Below, piece after piece: positions 5,759 through 48,152 of a stretch of DNA of 64,000 nucleotides. The position numbers were made by a program, and so were the translations under genes. Source of the stretch: an uncultured SAR86 cluster bacterium (GTDB lineage Bacteria > Pseudomonadota > Gammaproteobacteria > Magnimaribacterales > D2472); contig CACJBO010000006.1 in the NCBI GenBank assembly GCA_902591665.1, positions 2,281-66,280 of the forward strand, given 5' to 3'. A model generated the notes under the pieces. It was given only the letters and a program-made list of their open reading frames with translations. It searched no databases and was not told where the DNA came from. How positions within the stretch are numbered: position 1 is the stretch's first letter; each line of letters begins with the position of its first letter.

Positions 5759-6580
5759 TTAATTAGATTTATCTGGCATAACTAAACTTTTTAGCCATCC
5801 AAATAAACTATTTTGTCCCAGAGTATATCTATCCAATGCATCAAATTCTTTTGCTAGTTTAATAGGATCTTCAAGAAAGTTAGCTCTAGTATTGAATTCT
5901 ACATCATCTAATGTTTTTACTAATTTAGCCGGATTCCCAGCAAATATCGAATTTGGAGGAACATCTTTTGTAACAACAGCGCCAGCGCCAATAATACTAT
6001 TTTTACCGATAGTCACTCCTTTGCAGATAATTGCACTATCACCAATCCATACATTATCCTCAAAAACTACTGGCTTAGTATTTCCAACTGGTTCGGCTCT
6101 ATCATATATACCATGCCAGTCAGCATCTGATATGTATGCGCCATGAGCAATCATGCAAGCATCCCCAATAATAATACTTTTAGCAGACATTATTCTAACG
6201 CCAGGAGTAATCAAGCAAAACTTACCAATTTTTATTTCACCTTTATGTTCACCAATATCCCAAGAGGTAAATTGTATATGGGCATCTTTAGATCCAATTA
6301 AAGTAGGATAATCATCAATTGAGACATTACCGCCAAATACCTTTATGTAACTTGGTTTGAAATATGCGCCCCCTTTACCAAGATAATCAAATTGTGGTTC
6401 TAAGAATTGTCTTACATAAATTTTAACAATTTTGGTAACTAATTTTTTTAACCAATATGGTCTATTGTCTTTTCTGATAATAATCTCCAAAGGTGATATT
6501 TTAATATGATAAAGTAGCGGAAAAATTATTTCATAAAAATTGATTAAAAAATATTTAAAAGAATTTAAACACCTCTTCAA
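5759..6580 (-). CDS. Left-handed beta-helix (hexapeptide-repeat) acetyl/acyltransferase
   Basis: 273 aa. Hexapeptide repeats run through ...IGDACMIAHGAYISDADWHG...VWIGDSAIICKGVTIGKNSIIGAGAVVTKDVPPNSIFAGNPAKLV. The N-terminal ~100 aa are not recognised. The start as given is TTG (6580..6578) and overlaps the divergent MATE gene, so the 5' end is uncertain. Confidence 0.7.
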   Translation of the reverse strand: MKRCLNSFKYFLINFYEIIFPLLYHIKISPLEIIIRKDNRPYWLKKLVTKIVKIYVRQFLEPQFDYLGKGGAYFKPSYIKVFGGNVSIDDYPTLIGSKDAHIQFTSWDIGEHKGEIKIGKFCLITPGVRIMSAKSIIIGDACMIAHGAYISDADWHGIYDRAEPVGNTKPVVFEDNVWIGDSAIICKGVTIGKNSIIGAGAVVTKDVPPNSIFAGNPAKLVKTLDDVEFNTRANFLEDPIKLAKEFDALDRYTLGQNSLFGWLKSLVMPDKSN

Positions 6581-36648: not shown

Positions 36649-36724
36649 TGGTGGGTCGCACAGGATTCGAACCTGTGACCAATTGGTTAAAAGCCAACTG
36701 CTCTACCAGCTGAGCTAGCGACCC
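36649..36724 (-). tRNA. tRNA-Lys (anticodon UUU), CCA encoded
   Basis: The reverse complement reads GGGTCGCTAGCTCAGCTGGTAGAGCAGTTGGCTTTTAACCAATTGGTCACAGGTTCGAATCCTGTGCGACCCACCA. It has a 7-bp acceptor stem, a GCTC/GAGC D stem, anticodon loop CTTTTAA, and T arm ACAGG-TTCGAAT-CCTGT. It is nearly identical to E. coli tRNA-Lys. Its location downstream of cpoB matches the E. coli lysT locus. Confidence 0.97.
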
Positions 36725-36751: not shown

Positions 36752-37393
36752 TTATTCCATATTTTTCAATAACTGCAAGGCTAAAGATGAAGCAGTGTCA
36801 TTTGGGTATTCTCTTATTACAAAATTATATTTATCTTTTGCCTTTTCTAGTTCATTCTTTTTAAGAAAAATATCTCCAATTTTCTTGTGAGCAAGAGGAG
36901 TTCTGTAATGTGAGGGGTATAGATTAACTAACTCTAAGAAATATTCTTGTGATGATTCTAGTTTGTTTTGAATCAATGCTATCTCTCCTAACCAAAAAAT
37001 TGAAAGAGGTAATTTTTCTTCATCCTTAAAATTATCTACGAAAAATTTAAACAAAGAACTGGCTTTTTCGAAGTCTTGATTTTGAAGAGATTGAGTTGCA
37101 CTCATATAAACCTCCTCTTTACTTCTAGTATCATCAATTCCTGCAAACCTTACAGTATTTTCTGAGGCAAGATTGCTAGAATCCTCATTGGGCTCTGTAT
37201 CATCTACAGATTCTTGTATTAATTTTTGAATTAAATAATCTTGAGATTCTAAAATATTTCTAAGCTCGGCAATTTCTGATTCTAATTCTTGTATTTTTAA
37301 AAATAATAAATCAACTTCTACGTTATCATCCTCAGAAATTAAAAAAGATGAATATATGAAAAATAATGAAAATATTATTATTTGTTTAAGCAT
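36752..37393 (-). CDS. cpoB: Cell division coordinator CpoB (YbgF), TPR protein
   Basis: 213 aa. Signal peptide, coiled-coil N-domain, and C-terminal TPR repeats. It is the last gene of the tol-pal cluster. Confidence 0.82.
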   Translation of the reverse strand: MLKQIIIFSLFFIYSSFLISEDDNVEVDLLFLKIQELESEIAELRNILESQDYLIQKLIQESVDDTEPNEDSSNLASENTVRFAGIDDTRSKEEVYMSATQSLQNQDFEKASSLFKFFVDNFKDEEKLPLSIFWLGEIALIQNKLESSQEYFLELVNLYPSHYRTPLAHKKIGDIFLKKNELEKAKDKYNFVIREYPNDTASSLALQLLKNME

Positions 37394-37397
37394 TTAT

Positions 37398-37901
37398 TTA
37401 GTTAATTTCTGCTCTTCTATTTTTAGAATAACTAACTTCATCAGACCCAAATGATGCTGGTCTTTCTTCGCCGTAACTTTTTACACTAATTCTATTTTTG
37501 TCTATGCCACTTAAAACAAAATAATCTTTTACAGCATCTGCTCTTCTTTGTCCTAAAGCTAAATTGTATTCTCTGGTTCCTCTTTCATCTGCATGTCCTG
37601 CAATTGTGATACGAATAGATTGATTGTCTTTCATAGCCGAAACAGCACTTTTAAGGGTTTGAAGAGACTTGCTATTTAAATTGAATTTATCAAACTCAAA
37701 ATAAACCGTTGCGTTTGTAAAAATTGCCTTTGTCTCATAATCTAGTTCAGTGTTTTCTTGCATTGAGGCTTCAACTGTTCTGATGCCGCCGTCATATACA
37801 ACTTCCTCGGTTACATTCATGCTTGAGCAGGACGAAATTAAGAAAACTAGAATAAATAAGTTATATAAATTTATATTTTTAATTTTTTTAATACTAAGCA
37901 T
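37398..37901 (-). CDS. pal: Peptidoglycan-associated lipoprotein Pal
   Basis: 167 aa. Lipobox (LISSCSS) and an OmpA-like C-domain (GHADERGTREYNLALGQRRA...NRRAEI). Confidence 0.95.
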   Translation of the reverse strand: MLSIKKIKNINLYNLFILVFLISSCSSMNVTEEVVYDGGIRTVEASMQENTELDYETKAIFTNATVYFEFDKFNLNSKSLQTLKSAVSAMKDNQSIRITIAGHADERGTREYNLALGQRRADAVKDYFVLSGIDKNRISVKSYGEERPASFGSDEVSYSKNRRAEIN

Positions 37902-37917
37902 TTTTTTTCTCCATAAA

Positions 37918-39195
37918 TTATCTTAAAAAACCAGACCATGAAGGCTCTCTAACTTGTCCAATTTTAGTTGGAAGCCTAAATCTAGCGCCGCTTAAAGTTA
38001 GTCCAGCCAGTAGCCCTGTTCCATCTTCCGATATTGCATAGATTATCACATTCCCGTTAGGAGAAATACTAGGTGATTCATCTAATCTTGATTTAGTAAG
38101 GGCACGTACAAAATTTTCATTAAAGTATTTTAAAGCTATCTGAAAACTATTATCTTTACGATGAACAAAAACAATACCTTCGCCGTTTGGTAAATATGAT
38201 CCTTTAGCATTGTAGTTACCTTCAAAAGTAATTCTTTTTGGTTTTGCGTTAAATTTTCTTAAATTAATTTCATATAACTGAGGCGAACCAGATCTGCCCG
38301 AGGTAAACATAATTTTTGAGCCGTTAGGTGACCATGAAGATTCTGTATCAATTGAATAATGATTGGTTAATCTAGTTAAATTTTTATTTTTAAGATTTAG
38401 TATATAAATTTCAGCATTACCATCCTGATAAAGAGTCAGTGATAAGAACTTGCCATTTGGCGACCATGAGGGAGAACTTATTTGAGAATTATTTTCTAGA
38501 ACTAGCTCTCTTGATCCAGATGCAATATTTTGTATATATACTTTTGCCATGCCAGTCTCAAAGGAGACATATGCAACTTCTTTTGAGTCTGGTGACCATG
38601 AAGGAGAAATAATTGGCTCCCTACTCCTAAGAAGAACTTGCTCATTCTCACCATCTGCGTCGGCTACAACTAGTTTGAATAACGATTTATTATCTATTAT
38701 TTGCTCAGTTACATATAACAATCTTGTAGATGCAACTCCTTTAATTCCTGTTACCTCTTCATATATTCCATCGCTAATATAGTGTGATAATTGTCTTAAT
38801 CTGTTTGGAATGCCGTATACCGTTGAAGTTCTTATCTTAGATTGCTTATTAACATTATAAATTTCATAGGCAACCGATATATTGCTTTTATCTTCCTGAG
38901 AGGTTGCGCCCATTACAATAAAATCAACATTTAATAACTTAAAATCATCATAATTAATCTCCTCTTGATTTACTGGTGATGACAGGAGTTGATTATCTTT
39001 AAGAATACGGAACTCTCCTGTCCTATTTAGGTCATTGGTAACTATAGAGCCAATTTGATTATTAATATTTTTTGGGCCATCAAAATTAATTATTGCTATT
39101 GAATACGGATCATCTGATCCTTTTGTAATTTCTAAAACCAACTCTGAGATAATTGGTTGTGAAAATAGAATAAATATCAATAATGCTTTTTTCAT
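37918..39195 (-). CDS. tolB: Tol-Pal system periplasmic beta-propeller protein TolB
   Basis: 425 aa. Signal peptide and repeated SPSWSPDG/SPSWSPNG/SWSPNG propeller motifs. Confidence 0.95.
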   Translation of the reverse strand: MKKALLIFILFSQPIISELVLEITKGSDDPYSIAIINFDGPKNINNQIGSIVTNDLNRTGEFRILKDNQLLSSPVNQEEINYDDFKLLNVDFIVMGATSQEDKSNISVAYEIYNVNKQSKIRTSTVYGIPNRLRQLSHYISDGIYEEVTGIKGVASTRLLYVTEQIIDNKSLFKLVVADADGENEQVLLRSREPIISPSWSPDSKEVAYVSFETGMAKVYIQNIASGSRELVLENNSQISSPSWSPNGKFLSLTLYQDGNAEIYILNLKNKNLTRLTNHYSIDTESSWSPNGSKIMFTSGRSGSPQLYEINLRKFNAKPKRITFEGNYNAKGSYLPNGEGIVFVHRKDNSFQIALKYFNENFVRALTKSRLDESPSISPNGNVIIYAISEDGTGLLAGLTLSGARFRLPTKIGQVREPSWSGFLR

Positions 39196-39800
39196 GAAGG
39201 GTTAAATGTAATAACTATATTTTTAAAATTGTTTTGGTATAAATTAAATGGAATTTTATTAAAGAAAGAGAAGGTTTCAACCCTCGAAATAGCTTTTATT
39301 GCAGAATTATCAAATCTTATGTTGCCGCTACTTTTTATTAAATCAATTCGAGTTACTCGGCCATTTTTATTTATTGTCATTCTAAGATCACATACGAGCC
39401 CATCTTGAATATTTTGCGGCTTGATCCAAGCTGACTGAATAGATTGAATTATTAAATTGCTGTACTCATTAATTAAAATATTATCAGATTTTTCCTGCGC
39501 TAATTCATCTTCTTTGATTAAATTATTAATATCTGTCTCCGGAATAACTGGAGTTAATTCAATCTTATTCTCAGCTTGATTAACTTGGACTTGTTCAATA
39601 ATCTTTTTTTGAATATTTTTTATTGGTAAAGATTTTTTGGGCACTTCTTTCTCAAATAAAAGCTCAACATTTACAGGCTTGCTTAAAACAGGTCTGGTGT
39701 TTTTTTCAAAATAAAAAAAATCTGTTAAATATAAAATTATTGTTGCGTGAATTACAAAAGATATAAAAGAAGCTACAAAATAATCAGATTTAATTTGCAT
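39192..39800 (-). CDS. tolA: TolA (short form)
   Basis: N-terminal TM helix, a short charged linker, and a TonB/TolA-type C-terminal domain. Located between tolR and tolB. I use the ATG at 39800. The ORF track uses a TTG at 39815. Confidence 0.75.
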   Translation of the reverse strand: MQIKSDYFVASFISFVIHATIILYLTDFFYFEKNTRPVLSKPVNVELLFEKEVPKKSLPIKNIQKKIIEQVQVNQAENKIELTPVIPETDINNLIKEDELAQEKSDNILINEYSNLIIQSIQSAWIKPQNIQDGLVCDLRMTINKNGRVTRIDLIKSSGNIRFDNSAIKAISRVETFSFFNKIPFNLYQNNFKNIVITFNPS

Positions 39801-40212
39801 AGCCTGTTGTGACAATTCCTATTTTTGAAATACCAACACTTTGAACGGCAGCCATAGCCTTAGCTACACTATCGAAAATTACATCCTTATCGCTTTGGAA
39901 TACTATTTCTATCTCAGGATTTGCTTCAAAGATTACACTAGATTTTCTTTTTAGCTCCTCTAGATCAATAGGCAAAGACTCATCACCAACATTAATAAAA
40001 TATTCACCTTCTTTATTAATAGAAATTACTAAAGGCTCATTTTGTACAGACATTTTTGTTGTATCTGTATTGGGTAAGTTAACTTCTATTCCTTGAATTA
40101 ATAGCGGAGACAAAACCATAAAAATAATTAACAAAACCAACATTACATCTATGTATGGCACAACATTTATCTCTGCCTTTAATGTCTTTTTTTTTGCTAA
40201 TCTGTATATCAT
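39790..40212 (-). CDS. tolR: TolR (ExbD/TolR family)
   Basis: 140 aa. ...EINVVPYIDVMLVLLIIFMV is the typical ExbD/TolR TM region. Confidence 0.92.
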   Translation of the reverse strand: MIYRLAKKKTLKAEINVVPYIDVMLVLLIIFMVLSPLLIQGIEVNLPNTDTTKMSVQNEPLVISINKEGEYFINVGDESLPIDLEELKRKSSVIFEANPEIEIVFQSDKDVIFDSVAKAMAAVQSVGISKIGIVTTGYAN

Positions 40213-40881
40213 TTATTTTATGGATTGCTTATAAAAAATACTTGCAAGTTCTTCTGAGAAAATAAGAGTTGATTGACTCATTGTCTCAAGTTCAGAAGTA
40301 TATTTATTAAAAGCAATAACTGCAGGTATGGCAGCAAAGAGCCCCATTGCAGTTGCGACTAGTGCTTCTGATATCCCTGGAGCAACAGCATTAATGGTAG
40401 CTTGAGTGGCATCAGATAAACCTTGGAATGAGGTCATAATTCCCCAAACAGTTCCCAATAAGCCAATGTATGGACTTACTGATCCTACGTTTGCTAAAAA
40501 AGGAAGGTGTTTATTCATCTCCTCTTCATCTGAAGCTATTGCAACACGCATACATCTATTAATACCCTCTAAATCTAGCTCAGTAATTTCTTTATTTTTA
40601 CTTATCTGAAGAAACTCTTTGAATGCGCTTTTGAATACACCCAATGAACCAAATAACGGGCCTTCGTGATTTTCTAACTCACTATAAAGAGTATTAAGAT
40701 CCTCTCCACTCCAAAACCTATCTAGAAAACTATCATTGATTAATTTAATTTTTTTATAAAAATTATACCTTTCTACAATTACTATCCAGGTTAGTAGAGA
40801 TGCTATTAACAATATAATCATTACGGTCTTTACAACCATACCGGCATCTAGAAAAAGGTTTAAAACTGAAATATCATCCAT
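40213..40881 (-). CDS. tolQ: TolQ (MotA/TolQ/ExbB proton channel)
   Basis: MDDISVLNLFLDAGMVVKTVM aligns with E. coli TolQ [21 protein letters not shown]. The ATG at 40881 is preferred over the TTG at 40899 in the ORF track. Confidence 0.93.
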   Translation of the reverse strand: MDDISVLNLFLDAGMVVKTVMIILLIASLLTWIVIVERYNFYKKIKLINDSFLDRFWSGEDLNTLYSELENHEGPLFGSLGVFKSAFKEFLQISKNKEITELDLEGINRCMRVAIASDEEEMNKHLPFLANVGSVSPYIGLLGTVWGIMTSFQGLSDATQATINAVAPGISEALVATAMGLFAAIPAVIAFNKYTSELETMSQSTLIFSEELASIFYKQSIK

Positions 40882-41302
40882 GCGCTTCACCGTTATCAAA
40901 AATTAATAATAAATCATTAGGAAAAGGTTTTGGTTTTTTTGTCTCAATATCTACCATACAAACTTCAACACTTCCCTCACATATTTGATTTTTGCTGTCA
41001 TCACTTATGATTTTTTGATTAAAAAGCATCCTAGCTTTAGATTTCTTTTCAACCTCGGTCTGAACTATTAATTTTTCACCAAGTTTAGCTGGATATAAAA
41101 AATCTATATCGATTCTTTTGATTACAAAACCTAGATTTGATTGTCTTAGATCATTCTGCGAAATGCCATTTATAGTTAAAAAGTTAGATCTAGCTCTTTC
41201 AAAATATTTTATGTAATTAGCATGATATACAAAACCTTGAAAATCAGTATCTTCAACAAAGATAGTTAATTCGAAATCTTTATGCTTGAAAATTTTGCTC
41301 AT
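40874..41302 (-). CDS. ybgC: Acyl-CoA thioesterase YbgC (hotdog fold)
   Basis: 142 aa. VEDTDFQGFVYHANYIKYFERAR is the 4HBT/YbgC motif. It is the first gene of the tol-pal cluster. Confidence 0.9.
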   Translation of the reverse strand: MSKIFKHKDFELTIFVEDTDFQGFVYHANYIKYFERARSNFLTINGISQNDLRQSNLGFVIKRIDIDFLYPAKLGEKLIVQTEVEKKSKARMLFNQKIISDDSKNQICEGSVEVCMVDIETKKPKPFPNDLLLIFDNGEAHG

Positions 41303-41705
41303 GAAGTTCTATATCTTCTTGAAAAAGTTCTAGAATAATTTGAATAAAATCAGGCCAAAGCAAATCAACAGTTATTAAATTGTTTTTAATTTTATTATTT
41401 ATTGATGAGGCTAGTACTCTTACTTTTATTGGTCTGTTATTAAATTTATAAACTAACGCTGGTTTCAAATTTGTGCCTTGTGAGGAAGCTAGCACTTGAT
41501 CCCACCAATCGGGTCTAGGTTCAGCTCCTGTGCCATAGGCTTTACATTCTATGCACCAATTTCCCAGCATTAAATCTGGTAATTCCTTCGTTCTTGTTTG
41601 TTCTAATATTCTTTTAACTGGATTTGTTAGATTAAGGTCTTCAATAAGAGCATTTGCAATTTGTCTTTCAAAAGCTGCACCTTTATTTCTTGAATTTATA
41701 GACAA
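41280..41705 (-). CDS. Small PD-(D/E)XK nuclease, Hjc/YraN-like (putative Holliday junction resolvase-type endonuclease)
   Basis: 141 aa. KGAAFERQIANAL (N-terminal Glu), then PDLML, then IECK, giving the E...PD...ExK catalytic pattern in Hjc-like spacing. This is followed by KPALVYKFNNRPIKV. TTG start at 41705, 3 nt after the yebC stop. Family assignment is by eye only. Confidence 0.55.
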   Translation of the reverse strand: MSINSRNKGAAFERQIANALIEDLNLTNPVKRILEQTRTKELPDLMLGNWCIECKAYGTGAEPRPDWWDQVLASSQGTNLKPALVYKFNNRPIKVRVLASSINNKIKNNLITVDLLWPDFIQIILELFQEDIELHEQNFQA

Positions 41706-41708
41706 TTT

Positions 41709-42446
41709 TTACTCTTTAACCTCAAAGTTTTCTGGAAATTCAGCATTTGTATGAACCTCTTGGACATCATCTAATTCATCCATAAAGTCCATAATTTTTA
41801 GCACTTTTTCTGACATCTCTTGATCTAAAGAAACAGATGTTTCTGCCCTAAGAGTTAATTCAGCATTTGTATGCTCAATTTTATTAGTTTTAAGAGCTTC
41901 TAGTACATTACTCAAATCAGTGCTTGAAGTGATTACCTCAAAGTAATCGCCTTCATCAACTAAATCCTCAGCTCCAGCATCTAGAACAACCTCTAACAAA
42001 TCTTCCTCTGAAAAGTCTTTAGATATATGAATGATTCCCAGTTTATTAAATAAATAGGATACAGATCCATCTGTACCTAAATTGCCTCCAAACTTAGAAA
42101 ATGCATGCCTGACATCAGAAACTGTTCTGTTTCTATTATCCGACATAGCTTCAACTAAAATAGCTACACCACCAGGTCCATATCCTTCCAATACAATTTC
42201 TTCAAGGGCTCCTGTTTCACCAGTACCAGAGCCTTTTTCTATTGCTCTTTTAATATTATCTTTAGGCATATTTGCTGCATTTGCTTTATCTAAAGCAAGC
42301 CTTAACCTTGGGTTGTCATCAGGATCAGGACCTCCTTTTGCAGCAACTGTTATCTCTCTAATAACTTTGGTCCAAATTTTTCCTCTAGACGCATCTTGTC
42401 GAGCTTTTCTATGCTTAATGTTTGCCCATTTGGAATGTCCAGCCAT
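41709..42446 (-). CDS. yebC: YebC/PmpR (TACO1) family protein
   Basis: 245 aa. MAGHSKWANIKHRKARQDASRGKIWTK... is a canonical family N-terminus. Confidence 0.96.
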   Translation of the reverse strand: MAGHSKWANIKHRKARQDASRGKIWTKVIREITVAAKGGPDPDDNPRLRLALDKANAANMPKDNIKRAIEKGSGTGETGALEEIVLEGYGPGGVAILVEAMSDNRNRTVSDVRHAFSKFGGNLGTDGSVSYLFNKLGIIHISKDFSEEDLLEVVLDAGAEDLVDEGDYFEVITSSTDLSNVLEALKTNKIEHTNAELTLRAETSVSLDQEMSEKVLKIMDFMDELDDVQEVHTNAEFPENFEVKE

Positions 42447-42450
42447 ATAC

Positions 42451-44217
42451 CTATTCTTCCTTGTGAGTACTGATAATTTTTAGTTCATCTAGTTGTTTTT
42501 GATCAACCTTGCTTGGTGCATCGGTTAATAAACAGGTTGCGCTTTGTGTTTTTGGGAATGCGATGACATCTCTAATGTTATTGGTATCTGTAATAAGCAT
42601 TACCAGCCTATCAAGTCCAAATGCAATTCCACCATGAGGCGGGCAACCAGATGATAATGCTTTAATTAAAAAACCAAATTTACTGTTAGCTTCTTCTTTG
42701 CTTATTTGAAGAATGTCAAAGATAGCGCTTTGCATTTCTGCATCAAAAACCCTTAATGAGCCTCCGCCTATTTCATAACCATTTAGAACTATGTCGTATG
42801 CATATGCAATAGCTTCTTCTGGCGTATTTGTTAATTCATCAATAGAACAATTAGGTAAAGTGAATGGGTGATGGAGAGACGTTAAATTGCCTTCACTGTT
42901 TTTTTCAAACATAGGAAAATTAACAACCCAACATGGAGCCCATTTTTCAGTATACAAGGATAAGTCTTCGCCTATCTTCTTGATTAAGCTACTCATACTT
43001 AGATTAACAACGTTTTGCTTGCCAGCTCCAAAAAATAATAGATCATCATTTTCTAAATCCAAATCTTTTACTAAAGATGCAACTGTTTCTGATTTTAAGA
43101 ATTTCAATATAGGCGATTGGAGTCCATTCTCGATATCACTTTTGTCATTAACTTTTATATAAGCAAGTCCCTTAGCTCCTAATTTAGAAACAAAGCTGGT
43201 GTAATCATCTATCTGCCCTCTAGATAATGAGTTTCCTCCTGGAATTTTTAAAGCTACAACCCTTGAATTTTTATCTTTCGCAGGCTCGGCAAAAACCTTA
43301 AATTCTTCATCTTTTACCAAGTCAGAAATTTCAACGAGTTTTAAAGGAATTCTTAGATCAGGTTTATCGCAACCATAATCCCTCATTGCATCATGCCAAT
43401 CTAAAACTTCAAAATCTTTTAGTTTGTCATTACAAAATTCTTCTATAAGGCCCTTAACCATACCTTCACCAGTTTGCATAATATAATCTTGATCAATAAA
43501 TGACGCCTCAATATCTATTTGCGTAAACTCTGGTTGTCGGTCTGCTCTTAGATCCTCATCTCTAAAACATCTAGCAATTTGATAGTATTTATCTAATCCA
43601 CCCATCATTAGCAATTGCTTAAAAAGTTGAGGTGATTGAGGTAAGGCGAAGAAGTTTCCTGACTGCACCCTGCTTGGCAATATATAGTCTCTAGCTCCCT
43701 CAGGAGTGGCTCTTGTTAAAATAGGTGTTTCTATTTCATTAAAATCATTACCATCGAGATAATTTCGAATCATTGAGGTAATTTTTGATCTGGTAACAAT
43801 TCTATGGTTCATCTCAGGCCTTCTTAAATCTAGAACTCTATTTTTTAAGCGAACATCCTCATTGACCTCTTGATAGTCATCTAATGGAAATACTGGGGTT
43901 TCAGCTTTGCTTAGAATTTTAATATCTTTGCTTTCAAGCTCTACTTCGCCTGTTGTCATATTCTTGTTAATTGTTCCCTCTAATCTTGCTTTTACTATTC
44001 CACTTATTTGAACAACATACTCATTTCTTAGGCTTTCAGCTATTGCAAAAGATTCTGCGTTATCCGGATTAATAACAGCCTGACATATGCCCTTTATATC
44101 TCTTACATCAAGAAAGATAACCCCACCATGATCACGTCTTTTGTGTATCCAGCCACAGATAGTTATCTCTTCATTAAGATTTTTAGAAGTTATTTCTCCA
44201 CAATAGTGAGATCTCAT
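42451..44217 (-). CDS. aspS: Aspartyl-tRNA synthetase
   Basis: 588 aa. MRSHYCGEI..., an OB-fold N-domain, and class II motifs ([25 protein letters not shown]). Confidence 0.96.
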
Positions 44218-44232
44218 AATTTTTCCCTATAG

Positions 44233-44523
44233 TTATTTACTAATCTTATCTTGTTTAGTCACTTTCTTGGAGTCAGATGACAAATTTTGTGAAGATTTGT
44301 TAGCTGATTCTTTATCGTTTGATACCAAATTCTTTTTTTTACCAGTTTTAAAATCGGTTTCGTACCATCCTCCGCCTTTTAACCTAAAAGAAGGCGCTGA
44401 TACAAGCTTACTAAGAGTATCTTTTTCGCAATTTGGACATTTAGTTTTAGGTTTATCACTAAACTTCTGTATTAGTTCAAATTCTTGCCCACAATTTGAA
44501 CATTTATAGTCATAAATCGGCAT
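44233..44523 (-). CDS. FmdB-family zinc-ribbon protein
   Basis: 96 aa. MPIYDYKCSNCGQEFE...CPNCE... with a C-terminal low-complexity tail. Confidence 0.85.
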   Translation of the reverse strand: MPIYDYKCSNCGQEFELIQKFSDKPKTKCPNCEKDTLSKLVSAPSFRLKGGGWYETDFKTGKKKNLVSNDKESANKSSQNLSSDSKKVTKQDKISK

Positions 44524-47105: not shown

Positions 47106-48122
47106 CTATTTTGTAGATTTTGCCTTGCTGGTTATATAAGCTTTTCTAATTTCCTTTAACAGGCTATTACGGATTTTTGCATTCTCTTTTAAGAATAAAC
47201 TAGCTTTTACTTTTCCTTGTCCTATAGTTTCGCCATCCATTTTGTAGAAAGCACCAGACTTTTCAACAAGACCAAGTTTATGAGCATAATCCAATATTTC
47301 ACCTTCAGAATTAATGCCCTGACCATACATAATCTGAAACTCAGCTTGTTTAAATGGAGGTGAAACTTTATTTTTTACAACTTTGACTCTCGTCTCATTG
47401 CCCATAATTTCATCGCCTTCTTTAACAGCACCTATTCTTCTTATGTCTAATCTTACTGAAGAATAGAACTTAAGAGCATTACCACCAGTTGTTGTTTCAG
47501 GGCTACCAAACATTACACCAATCTTCATTCGTATTTGGTTAATAAATACAACTGTTGCTCCAGACCTTTGTATATTCCCTGTAATCTTTCTGAGAGCTTG
47601 AGACATTAATCTGGCTTGAAGGCCTACATGATGATCACCCATCTCACCTTCTATTTCAGCTCTTGGAACTAATGCTGCAACTGAATCAATGATAACTAAA
47701 TCAACACTATTTGATCTAACCAACATGTCAGCTACTTCTAGAGCTTGTTCACCAGTATCTGGCTGTGATAATAATAATTCGTCGACATTTACACCTAGCT
47801 TTTCTGCATATTGAGGATCTAGTGCATGCTCTGCATCAATAAATGCACATGTTCCACCCTCTTTTTGACATTGAGCAATAATTTGAAGAGTTAGAGTAGT
47901 TTTACCAGAAGATTCTGGTCCATATATCTCAGTAACTCTACCTTTTGGTATGCCGCCTATACCTAATGCTATATCTAACCCTACTGAACCTGTTGAAATC
48001 GAAGGAATATCAAGATTTTCTCTATCCCCCATTCTCATAACGGTGCCTTTACCGAAATGACTATCTATATCTGCAAGCGTATCCTTTAATGATTTTGAAC
48101 CTGTATCTTTTGATTTAGCCAT
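47106..48122 (-). CDS. recA: Recombinase RecA
   Basis: 338 aa. Walker [10 protein letters not shown] and typical RecA sequence throughout. AGGAG RBS at 48128..48132 (minus strand). Confidence 0.98.
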
Positions 48123-48132
48123 AATAACTCCT

Positions 48133-48152
48133 TACTGTATATTTATACAGTA
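48133..48152. promoter_or_regulatory. LexA (SOS) box
   Basis: TACTGTATATTTATACAGTA fits CTGT-N8-ACAG with an AT-rich spacer. It is close to the E. coli consensus TACTG(TA)5CAGTA. It lies immediately upstream of the recA RBS. Confidence 0.88.

Follow-up and report, generated by a model that had tools for sequence, protein, structure and literature searches.

The genes for the Holliday junction machinery RuvABC keep characteristic company. In Escherichia coli (NC_000913.3) yebC adjoins ruvC, and in Pseudomonas aeruginosa PAO1 the loci PA0968-PA0974 presumably read ybgC-tolQRAB-oprL-ybgF. Just ahead of these, PA0964-PA0967 are pmpR (yebC), ruvC, ruvA and ruvB (PMC6448920), and in STRING, YebC, YbgC, TolB, TolQ and TolR rank highest among the context partners of RuvA, RuvB and RuvC (Zhang et al., 2012, PMC3403352). 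RuvAB is missing from fewer than 2% of bacteria, mostly parasites (PMC3403352). Here we describe a stretch of DNA from an uncultured bacterium of SAR86, a free-living group among the most abundant bacteria of the surface ocean (contig CACJBO010000006.1; all 64 kb of the stretch are referred to below as the window), in which the ancestral position of ruvCAB, between yebC and ybgC-tol-pal, is occupied by a single gene, called X here, for a predicted nuclease of the PD-(D/E)XK superfamily. An initial annotation made from the sequence alone had recognized the interval as the ruvC-ruvA-ruvB slot, and the P. aeruginosa gene order and the STRING partners bear this out.

Replacements of parts of the Ruv system have been described before. 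RusA, encoded by the cryptic prophage DLP12 of E. coli, is a phage-derived resolvase able to substitute for RuvABC in a bacterial cell; it differs from X in its fold, in being normally silent and accessory, in residing in a genome that retains RuvABC and in not being fixed in a lineage. RecU of Firmicutes and Mollicutes, which like X belongs to the PD-(D/E)XK proteins related to Hjc, took the place of RuvC throughout one bacterial lineage by non-orthologous displacement (PMC3403352). The RecU lineages, however, keep RuvAB and carry recU away from the ruv locus (PMC3403352), whereas SAR86 is reported to be without RuvAB. The archaeal resolvases Hjc and Hje (1gef, 2wcw, 1hh1, 1ob8) resemble X most closely in architecture: they have about 120-140 residues, an alpha1-beta-beta-alpha-beta core and an E / D / E-x-K catalytic tetrad in register with that of X, but X belongs to a bacterium and to phages rather than to archaea. 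From the evidence set out below we conclude that X is probably a domesticated phage gene that serves SAR86 (order Magnimaribacterales) as a resolvase for Holliday junctions and other branched DNA.

Family and fold of the X protein

X is the only open reading frame (ORF) that fits into the interval between yebC and ybgC. Its TTG start follows the yebC stop codon (41709-41711) after 3 bases, and it overlaps by 23 nt with ybgC, the ATG of which lies at 41302. The initial annotation had described a 141-aa ORF as the sole gene here, in agreement with the coordinates and the list of ORFs, and all four peptides on which it had based its assignment are found in the translation, namely KGAAFER (residues 8-14), PDLML (43-47), IECK (52-55) and KPALVYKFNNRPIKV (81-95).

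The protein gives one match in Pfam, to PF24608 (PDDEXK_15, "phage putative PDDEXK endonuclease"), covering residues 4-111 with 40.4 bits and E=3.7e-10, where the curated gathering cut-off is 27 bits. In PHROGs it matches phrog_244 ("RusA-like Holliday junction resolvase", E=6e-13), whereas NCBIfam, PADLOC and a single-sequence search of the PDB returned no match. All of the listed homologues carry a precomputed PF24608 assignment, and several of them are labelled "Holliday junction resolvase" by the pipeline of the Joint Genome Institute (JGI). The family is small, with 253 clusters at E<=1e-3 among 1.84 billion cluster representatives. No RusA or RecU profile in Pfam or NCBIfam matches X; the fold of RusA is a different one, and the wording "RusA-like" comes solely from the functional label of the PHROG. 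Nor does X have the sequence or the fold of RuvC, its own fold being that of PD-(D/E)XK nucleases.

A confident AlphaFold model built on a 62-member alignment (predicted local distance difference test, pLDDT, 89.7; predicted template-modelling score, pTM, 0.85) places E13 in a helix spanning residues 3-23, D44 directly before a strand (45-47), and E53 and K55 in the next strand (50-57), followed by a helix, three successive strands and two C-terminal helices. This arrangement defines the PD-(D/E)XK superfamily: an acidic residue in the first helix, then a strand that opens with (P)D, and (D/E)-x-K in the strand after it. A Foldseek search of the PDB with the model returned archaeal Hjc and Hje exclusively at ranks 1-18 (2wcw, 2wiw, 2wcz, 1gef, 1ob8, 2eo0), with E from 2.7e-4, probabilities of 0.95-1.00 and template-modelling (TM) scores of 0.5-0.59; restriction enzymes and lambda exonuclease rank below them. 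The profile and fold searches proposed in the initial annotation thus place X in a nuclease family, PF24608, with Hjc and Hje at the top of the fold search.

At the level of sequence the relationship is more distant. Pfam Hjc (COG1591) gives no match at E<=10, and the family profile reaches Hjc sequences of the PDB only below threshold (E 0.065-0.95), interleaved with unrelated proteins of similar E. Aligned by hhalign with a fragment of Pyrococcus furiosus Hjc, the family profile scores a probability of 88.5% (E=2.8e-6), with E13, D44, E53 and K55 paired with Hjc E9, D33, E46 and K48, and PALVYKF paired with PVLAVKF. Such a score against one Hjc sequence indicates homology, not family membership. 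X further differs from the archaeal enzymes by an additional pair of C-terminal helices (residues 117-140). By fold and remote homology, the evidence therefore supports an Hjc-like PD-(D/E)XK protein; its actual family is the phage family PF24608. Of the label "Hjc/YraN-like" in the initial annotation, the Hjc part stands, on the top 18 Foldseek ranks and the hhalign result, and the YraN part is unsupported, Pfam giving no match to that family.

Conservation and selection

G9, E13, D44, E53 and K55 are invariant in the alignment of 62 homologues, which share 27-91% identity, and R6, K8, R32, L34, Q36, Y57, W67, W68, Q70 and P82 are nearly so. Conservation of the four presumed catalytic residues among homologues, a check suggested along with the initial annotation, is thus complete; together with the 40.4-bit PF24608 match, these invariant residues show that the motif is not a chance pattern. 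Across 106 unsaturated pairs of SAR86 genes, the median ratio of nonsynonymous to synonymous substitution rates (dN/dS) of X is 0.045 and the highest 0.25. In one comparison of loci, X is 69% identical, AspS 66%, YebC 69%, TolQ 65% and YbgC about 49%, so that X is conserved about as much as AspS, YebC and TolQ and more than YbgC. X is under strong purifying selection and is inherited in place across deep SAR86 diversity.

The locus across SAR86

A scan of one genome per GTDB species with an 8-sequence seed found relatives in 234 species, the best 80 of which (67-99% identity) were examined. These include SAR86A, SAR86B, SCGC AAA076-P13 and a chromosome-level metagenome-assembled genome (MAG) of 1.30 Mb; most are labelled SAR86, many are unclassified gammaproteobacterial MAGs, and three bear the labels Proteobacteria, Pseudomonadota and Rhodospirillaceae. 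The order aspS-yebC-X-ybgC-tolQ and its spacing are the same in 86/86 loci, including those of the best 80 species genomes, and none of the 86 contains a match to RuvA, RuvB or RuvC. Several of the best 80 are 99-100% identical to the window over aspS, yebC, X, ybgC and tolQ. In SAR86A (GCA_000252525.1), which is assigned to the "Suzuki" family (GTDB D2472) in Tables S2 and S3 of Ramfelt et al. (2024, PMC11582366), the X locus is L039; this assignment puts the window in the Suzuki family as well.

The same slot also holds more divergent versions of X, 136 aa long, in the RedeBAC7D11 family (GTDB AG-339-G14; GCA_902614925.1, GCA_902524805.1), and such versions occupy it again in a third, unassigned lineage (L096-L098). 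A metagenome scan seeded with an X sequence of 58% identity added 80 further contigs; where enough flank is present, yebC lies immediately upstream of X in 63/63 and ybgC immediately downstream in 75/76, and no RuvABC match occurs on any of the 80. Some of these contigs have a guanine-cytosine (GC) content of 36-37%, a value typical of the Magnimaribacteraceae, which hints that they may come from that family. A survey of relatives, likewise proposed at the outset, has thus recovered the same arrangement in 86/86 loci and, where the flanks extend far enough, in 63/63 (yebC) and 75/76 (ybgC) of the further contigs.

The start of the gene varies among lineages. The copies of the Suzuki/D2472 family that were read out begin with TTG in the window (41703-41705), L039, L068 and L087 and with ATG in L085; in the RedeBAC7D11 copies and the unassigned L097 lineage X begins with an ATG two residues further in (MTNSRNKG...). 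One database protein, P0141, joins the C-terminus of YebC to the N-terminus of X, most likely through a frameshift or an artefact of gene calling at the 3 bases that separate their genes. Three others (P0285, P0288, P0293), all on contigs shorter than 1 kb, combine about 97 N-terminal residues of the Suzuki/D2472 type with about 40 C-terminal residues of the RedeBAC7D11 type, and are either chimeras of metagenome assembly or true recombinants between SAR86 families.

Reported loss of RuvABC

Among 732 putative SAR86 genomes, 27 markers have been found to be systematically absent (Ramfelt et al., 2024, PMC11582366). Table S1 of that study scores "No" for PF01330 and PF07499 (RuvA), PF05491 (the C-terminal domain of RuvB) and PF02075 (RuvC), with counts of zero in nearly every genome column, SAR86A included, and its negatives cover the closed genome of the isolate HIMB1674; RadA, RecN, MutS domains I and IV and YbaB/EbfC are scored as absent as well (PMC11582366). 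Within the window, the best tblastn match of E. coli RuvA, RuvB or RuvC has E=1.4, in line with the initial annotation, which had seen none of the three there. That annotation had spoken of either removal or relocation of RuvAB; the published marker tables for HIMB1674 and the 732 SAR86 genomes favour removal. The main text of Ramfelt et al. (2024, PMC11582366) does not mention ruv, Holliday or resolvase, and our literature search found no paper on SAR86 with ruvC or "Holliday junction" and none that ties X to the loss of RuvABC.

Another entry of the same table concerns protein targeting. Absence of FtsY and SRP54 would be surprising for any bacterium, and their negatives suggest either very divergent components of the signal recognition particle (SRP) or false negatives of the hidden Markov models (HMMs).

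Phage relatives and origin

Outside SAR86, all listed members of the family lie on contigs of <=60 kb, and the three of these that were inspected carry genes for integrase, YqaJ, Sak, primase/helicase, terminase, lysozyme and head-tail connector. The family occurs in 70 cultured phages, including phages of Salmonella, Escherichia, Pseudomonas and Roseobacter, in which it is variously annotated as "RusA-like Holliday junction resolvase", "putative resolvase" or "endonuclease". In Roseobacter phage CRP-811 the homologue adjoins a second, exonuclease-like PD-(D/E)XK protein, SSB and a RepA helicase, and the homologue of L093 (8001-8384) is likewise found in a replication/recombination module. The phage loci compared also include a homologue at 5004-5420 of L092.

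IMG/VR contains at least 563 viral contigs with relatives, and none of the best 80 of these carries yebC, ybgC, tolQ or aspS. The closest among the listed IMG/VR relatives are L102, with 57% identity to the window protein, and L103-L112, with 53-55%; the latter are 62-67% identical to X of the RedeBAC7D11 type. L102 and L108, which carry virion, tail-fibre, endolysin and ejection-protein genes, are genuine phages, and their copies share the C-terminal helical extension with SAR86 X. By score and by its invariant residues X is a member of PDDEXK_15 / PHROG 244, and its closest listed relatives are those of marine phages (53-67% identity), but the SAR86 gene differs from theirs in being chromosomal, without phage neighbours, and fixed in a housekeeping operon across the order.

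In a neighbour-joining distance tree (about 130 columns, 100 bootstraps) the SAR86 and these phage copies form one subfamily with a bootstrap of 77, in which L102 joins the Suzuki clade (75) and the grouping of L103-L112 with the remaining lineages is weak (43). That the SAR86 copies are strictly monophyletic, as expected from a single acquisition without later exchange, was rejected: phage copies nest inside, and only 2/100 bootstraps recover a clade of SAR86 alone. From these sequence relationships the history may be read as capture of a phage gene at the ruv locus by a SAR86 ancestor, followed by exchange between SAR86 and phages. The initial annotation had called the nuclease "archaeal/phage-type"; PF24608 and the phage-borne distribution of the family uphold a phage origin, and the archaeal one is not upheld. 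A 135-aa relative on L114, an IMG/VR contig of 12.9 kb, is identical to P0134 and 45-48% identical to the window protein; it was considered as a divergent SAR86 copy and rejected, the contig being classified as viral and the protein falling outside the SAR86 subfamily in the tree.

Genomic neighbourhood

The features of the locus are collected in Table 1. A zinc-ribbon ORF (44233-44523), aspS, yebC, X, ybgC and the tol-pal genes share one strand and are either a few bases apart or overlapping, an arrangement consistent with their co-transcription. The initial annotation had stressed that this genome keeps RecA and an SOS box, and both are confirmed by the Pfam match and by a perfect LexA box ahead of recA; in a scan of the window for perfect LexA boxes none was found ahead of aspS, yebC or X. 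The tol-pal cluster ends at a tRNA gene, and tRNA genes occupy the corresponding position in E. coli as well.

Table 1. Coordinates of X, its catalytic codons and neighbouring features within the 64-kb window.
Feature	Position	Strand	Description
gene X	41280..41705	-	TTG start, 141 aa, end coordinate including stop codon; PD-(D/E)XK nuclease, Hjc-like fold (Pfam PDDEXK_15)
E13 codon	41667..41669	-	First acidic catalytic residue, in KGAAFER; invariant, n=62 homologues; aligns with Hjc E9
D44 codon	41574..41576	-	"PD" of the motif; invariant; aligns with Hjc D33
E53-C54-K55 codons	41541..41549	-	(D/E)XK part; E53 and K55 invariant, aligning with Hjc E46 and K48
yebC	41709..42446	-	Upstream of X; Pfam TACO1_YebC_N and Transcrip_reg; 51% identity to E. 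coli YebC
ybgC	40874..41302	-	First gene of the tol-pal cluster; thioesterase; Pfam 4HBT_2 and 4HBT
aspS	42451..44217	-	Upstream of yebC; Pfam tRNA-synt_2, GAD, anticodon OB fold
tolQ-tolR-tolA-tolB-pal-ybgF	36752..40899	-	Downstream; Pfam MotA_ExbB, ExbD, TonB_2/TolA, TolB_N/PD40, OmpA, TPR (YbgF/CpoB)
recA	47106..48122	-	Pfam RecA, E=1.9e-142
LexA (SOS) box	48135..48150	+	Perfect, CTGTATATTTATACAG; lying 13 nt ahead of the recA start codon; sole match in the window
tRNA-Lys(UUU)	36649-36724	-	Immediately follows ybgF/cpoB, where the tol-pal cluster ends

Proposed role and alternative explanations

Since RecA is kept, recombination intermediates are made, and the preferred reading of X as the SAR86 resolvase suggests how they could be removed. 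With the fold and the catalytic tetrad of archaeal Hjc, X is proposed to act as a small metal-dependent endonuclease. RecA, under SOS control, would form joint molecules; X would bind the four-way junction, presumably as a homodimer like Hjc, and would make paired nicks by means of E13, D44, E53, K55 and Mg2+. It would work without the RuvAB motor, and branch migration would be spontaneous, driven by RecA or carried out by a helicase such as RecG. Dimerization, junction specificity and the position of X as sole resolvase are what we infer for the protein, and cleavage of junctions is predicted by analogy with Hjc. A wider proposition, on which our own judgement is evenly balanced, is that a whole order of free-living and abundant ocean bacteria dropped RuvABC, and by the same tables also RadA, RecN and MutS, and that one domesticated phage nuclease of the archaeal Hjc type, seated in the vacated ruvCAB locus and still exchanged with phages, now resolves its recombination intermediates.

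Several points weigh against so specific a role. The similarity to Hjc is moderate (TM 0.5-0.59), and the PD-(D/E)XK fold is also found in restriction enzymes, exonucleases and flap or fork nucleases. No biochemically characterized member of PF24608 or PHROG 244 was found in the literature, so that junction specificity is a matter of analogy of fold, and some phage homologues are located inside structural modules, as in L108, where the gene (5995-6414) sits between those for a virion structural protein and a large transglycosylase/ejection protein, which is not typical of a resolvase gene. RecG, RusA, RecQ/TopoIII or another resolvase may exist in SAR86 genomes. Presence of X is confirmed in two named SAR86 families and some unassigned lineages, not in the closed HIMB1674 genome itself. 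The genome-wide absence of RuvABC comes from published CheckM marker tables (PMC11582366), and Table S1 also scores FtsY and the signal-peptide-binding domain of SRP54 as absent (PMC11582366), so some of its negatives may be HMM misses in a fast-evolving, AT-rich lineage.

The alternative that survives best, although we consider it unlikely, grants X nuclease activity and the Hjc-like fold but gives it another job, at stalled or regressed forks, flaps, single-stranded DNA or foreign DNA, or in some link with YebC or Tol-Pal, its slot being incidental after a phage-mediated deletion of ruvCAB. The functional promiscuity of the fold, the TM scores to Hjc, the lack of a characterized relative in the literature found and the phage copies in structural modules would all fit such a protein. 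Yet junction resolvases supply all of the best structural and profile matches, the defence-system models of PADLOC give no match, and other phage copies lie in recombination or replication modules; a lineage with RecA but without RuvABC needs a means of removing junctions, and incidental placement accords poorly with an exact positional replacement conserved across the order.

Quite improbable, in our view, is the possibility that RuvABC or another canonical resolvase is encoded elsewhere and that X is an accessory, prophage-derived backup comparable to RusA of E. coli K-12. More than 98% of bacteria have RuvAB (PMC3403352), and the HMM markers behind the published absence miss FtsY and SRP54 domains too. 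RuvB, however, is among the most conserved bacterial proteins, which makes an HMM miss unlikely; a closed genome and hundreds of SAR86 genomes score zero for the RuvA_N, RuvA_C, RuvB_C and RuvC markers, neither the window nor any of more than 250 loci contains a RuvABC match, and X is under a constraint of housekeeping level.

Still less credit can be given to the second label of the initial annotation, under which X would be a YraN/UPF0102-type protein, from a bacterial Hjc-like family of unknown function, and not a phage-type resolvase. The superfamily is the same and the size similar, but PDDEXK_15 is the sole Pfam match even at E<=10, with none to PF02021, NCBIfam returns nothing, and the UPF0102-like structure 3fov appears only 44th in the fold search (E=0.52). 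Scarcely credible, finally, is a decaying or selfish prophage remnant without cellular function: the family is overwhelmingly phage-borne and close copies exist in marine phages, but X has a median dN/dS of 0.045, is intact and of the same length and position in every SAR86 locus examined, even where AspS identity has fallen to 66%, and has no flanking phage genes in genomes streamlined to 1.0-1.6 Mb.

Significance

PF24608 is an already known, uncharacterized Pfam family, and the replacement of RuvC by RecU in Firmicutes and the substitution of RusA for RuvABC are known too. What appears to be new is that an Hjc-like nuclease of phage origin has taken the very place of the entire ruvCAB block throughout an order of Gammaproteobacteria that is abundant and free-living, and that this is combined with a reported loss of RuvAB and with a gene exchange with marine phages that is still going on. 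The missing RuvABC markers of SAR86 have been published as an issue of genome completeness, without a link to a replacement. X is a concrete candidate for how a streamlined genome retains RecA-based recombination while shedding a three-gene machine, and a clean case of the in-place displacement of a core cellular function by a gene from phages. For experiments on its role the cultured isolate HIMB1674 exists. If the proposed role is true, the PF24608 / PHROG 244 family would gain a testable function; under the wider proposition above, no bacterial lineage before SAR86 would have been found to rely, independently of RuvAB, on an Hjc-like protein as its sole cellular resolvase.

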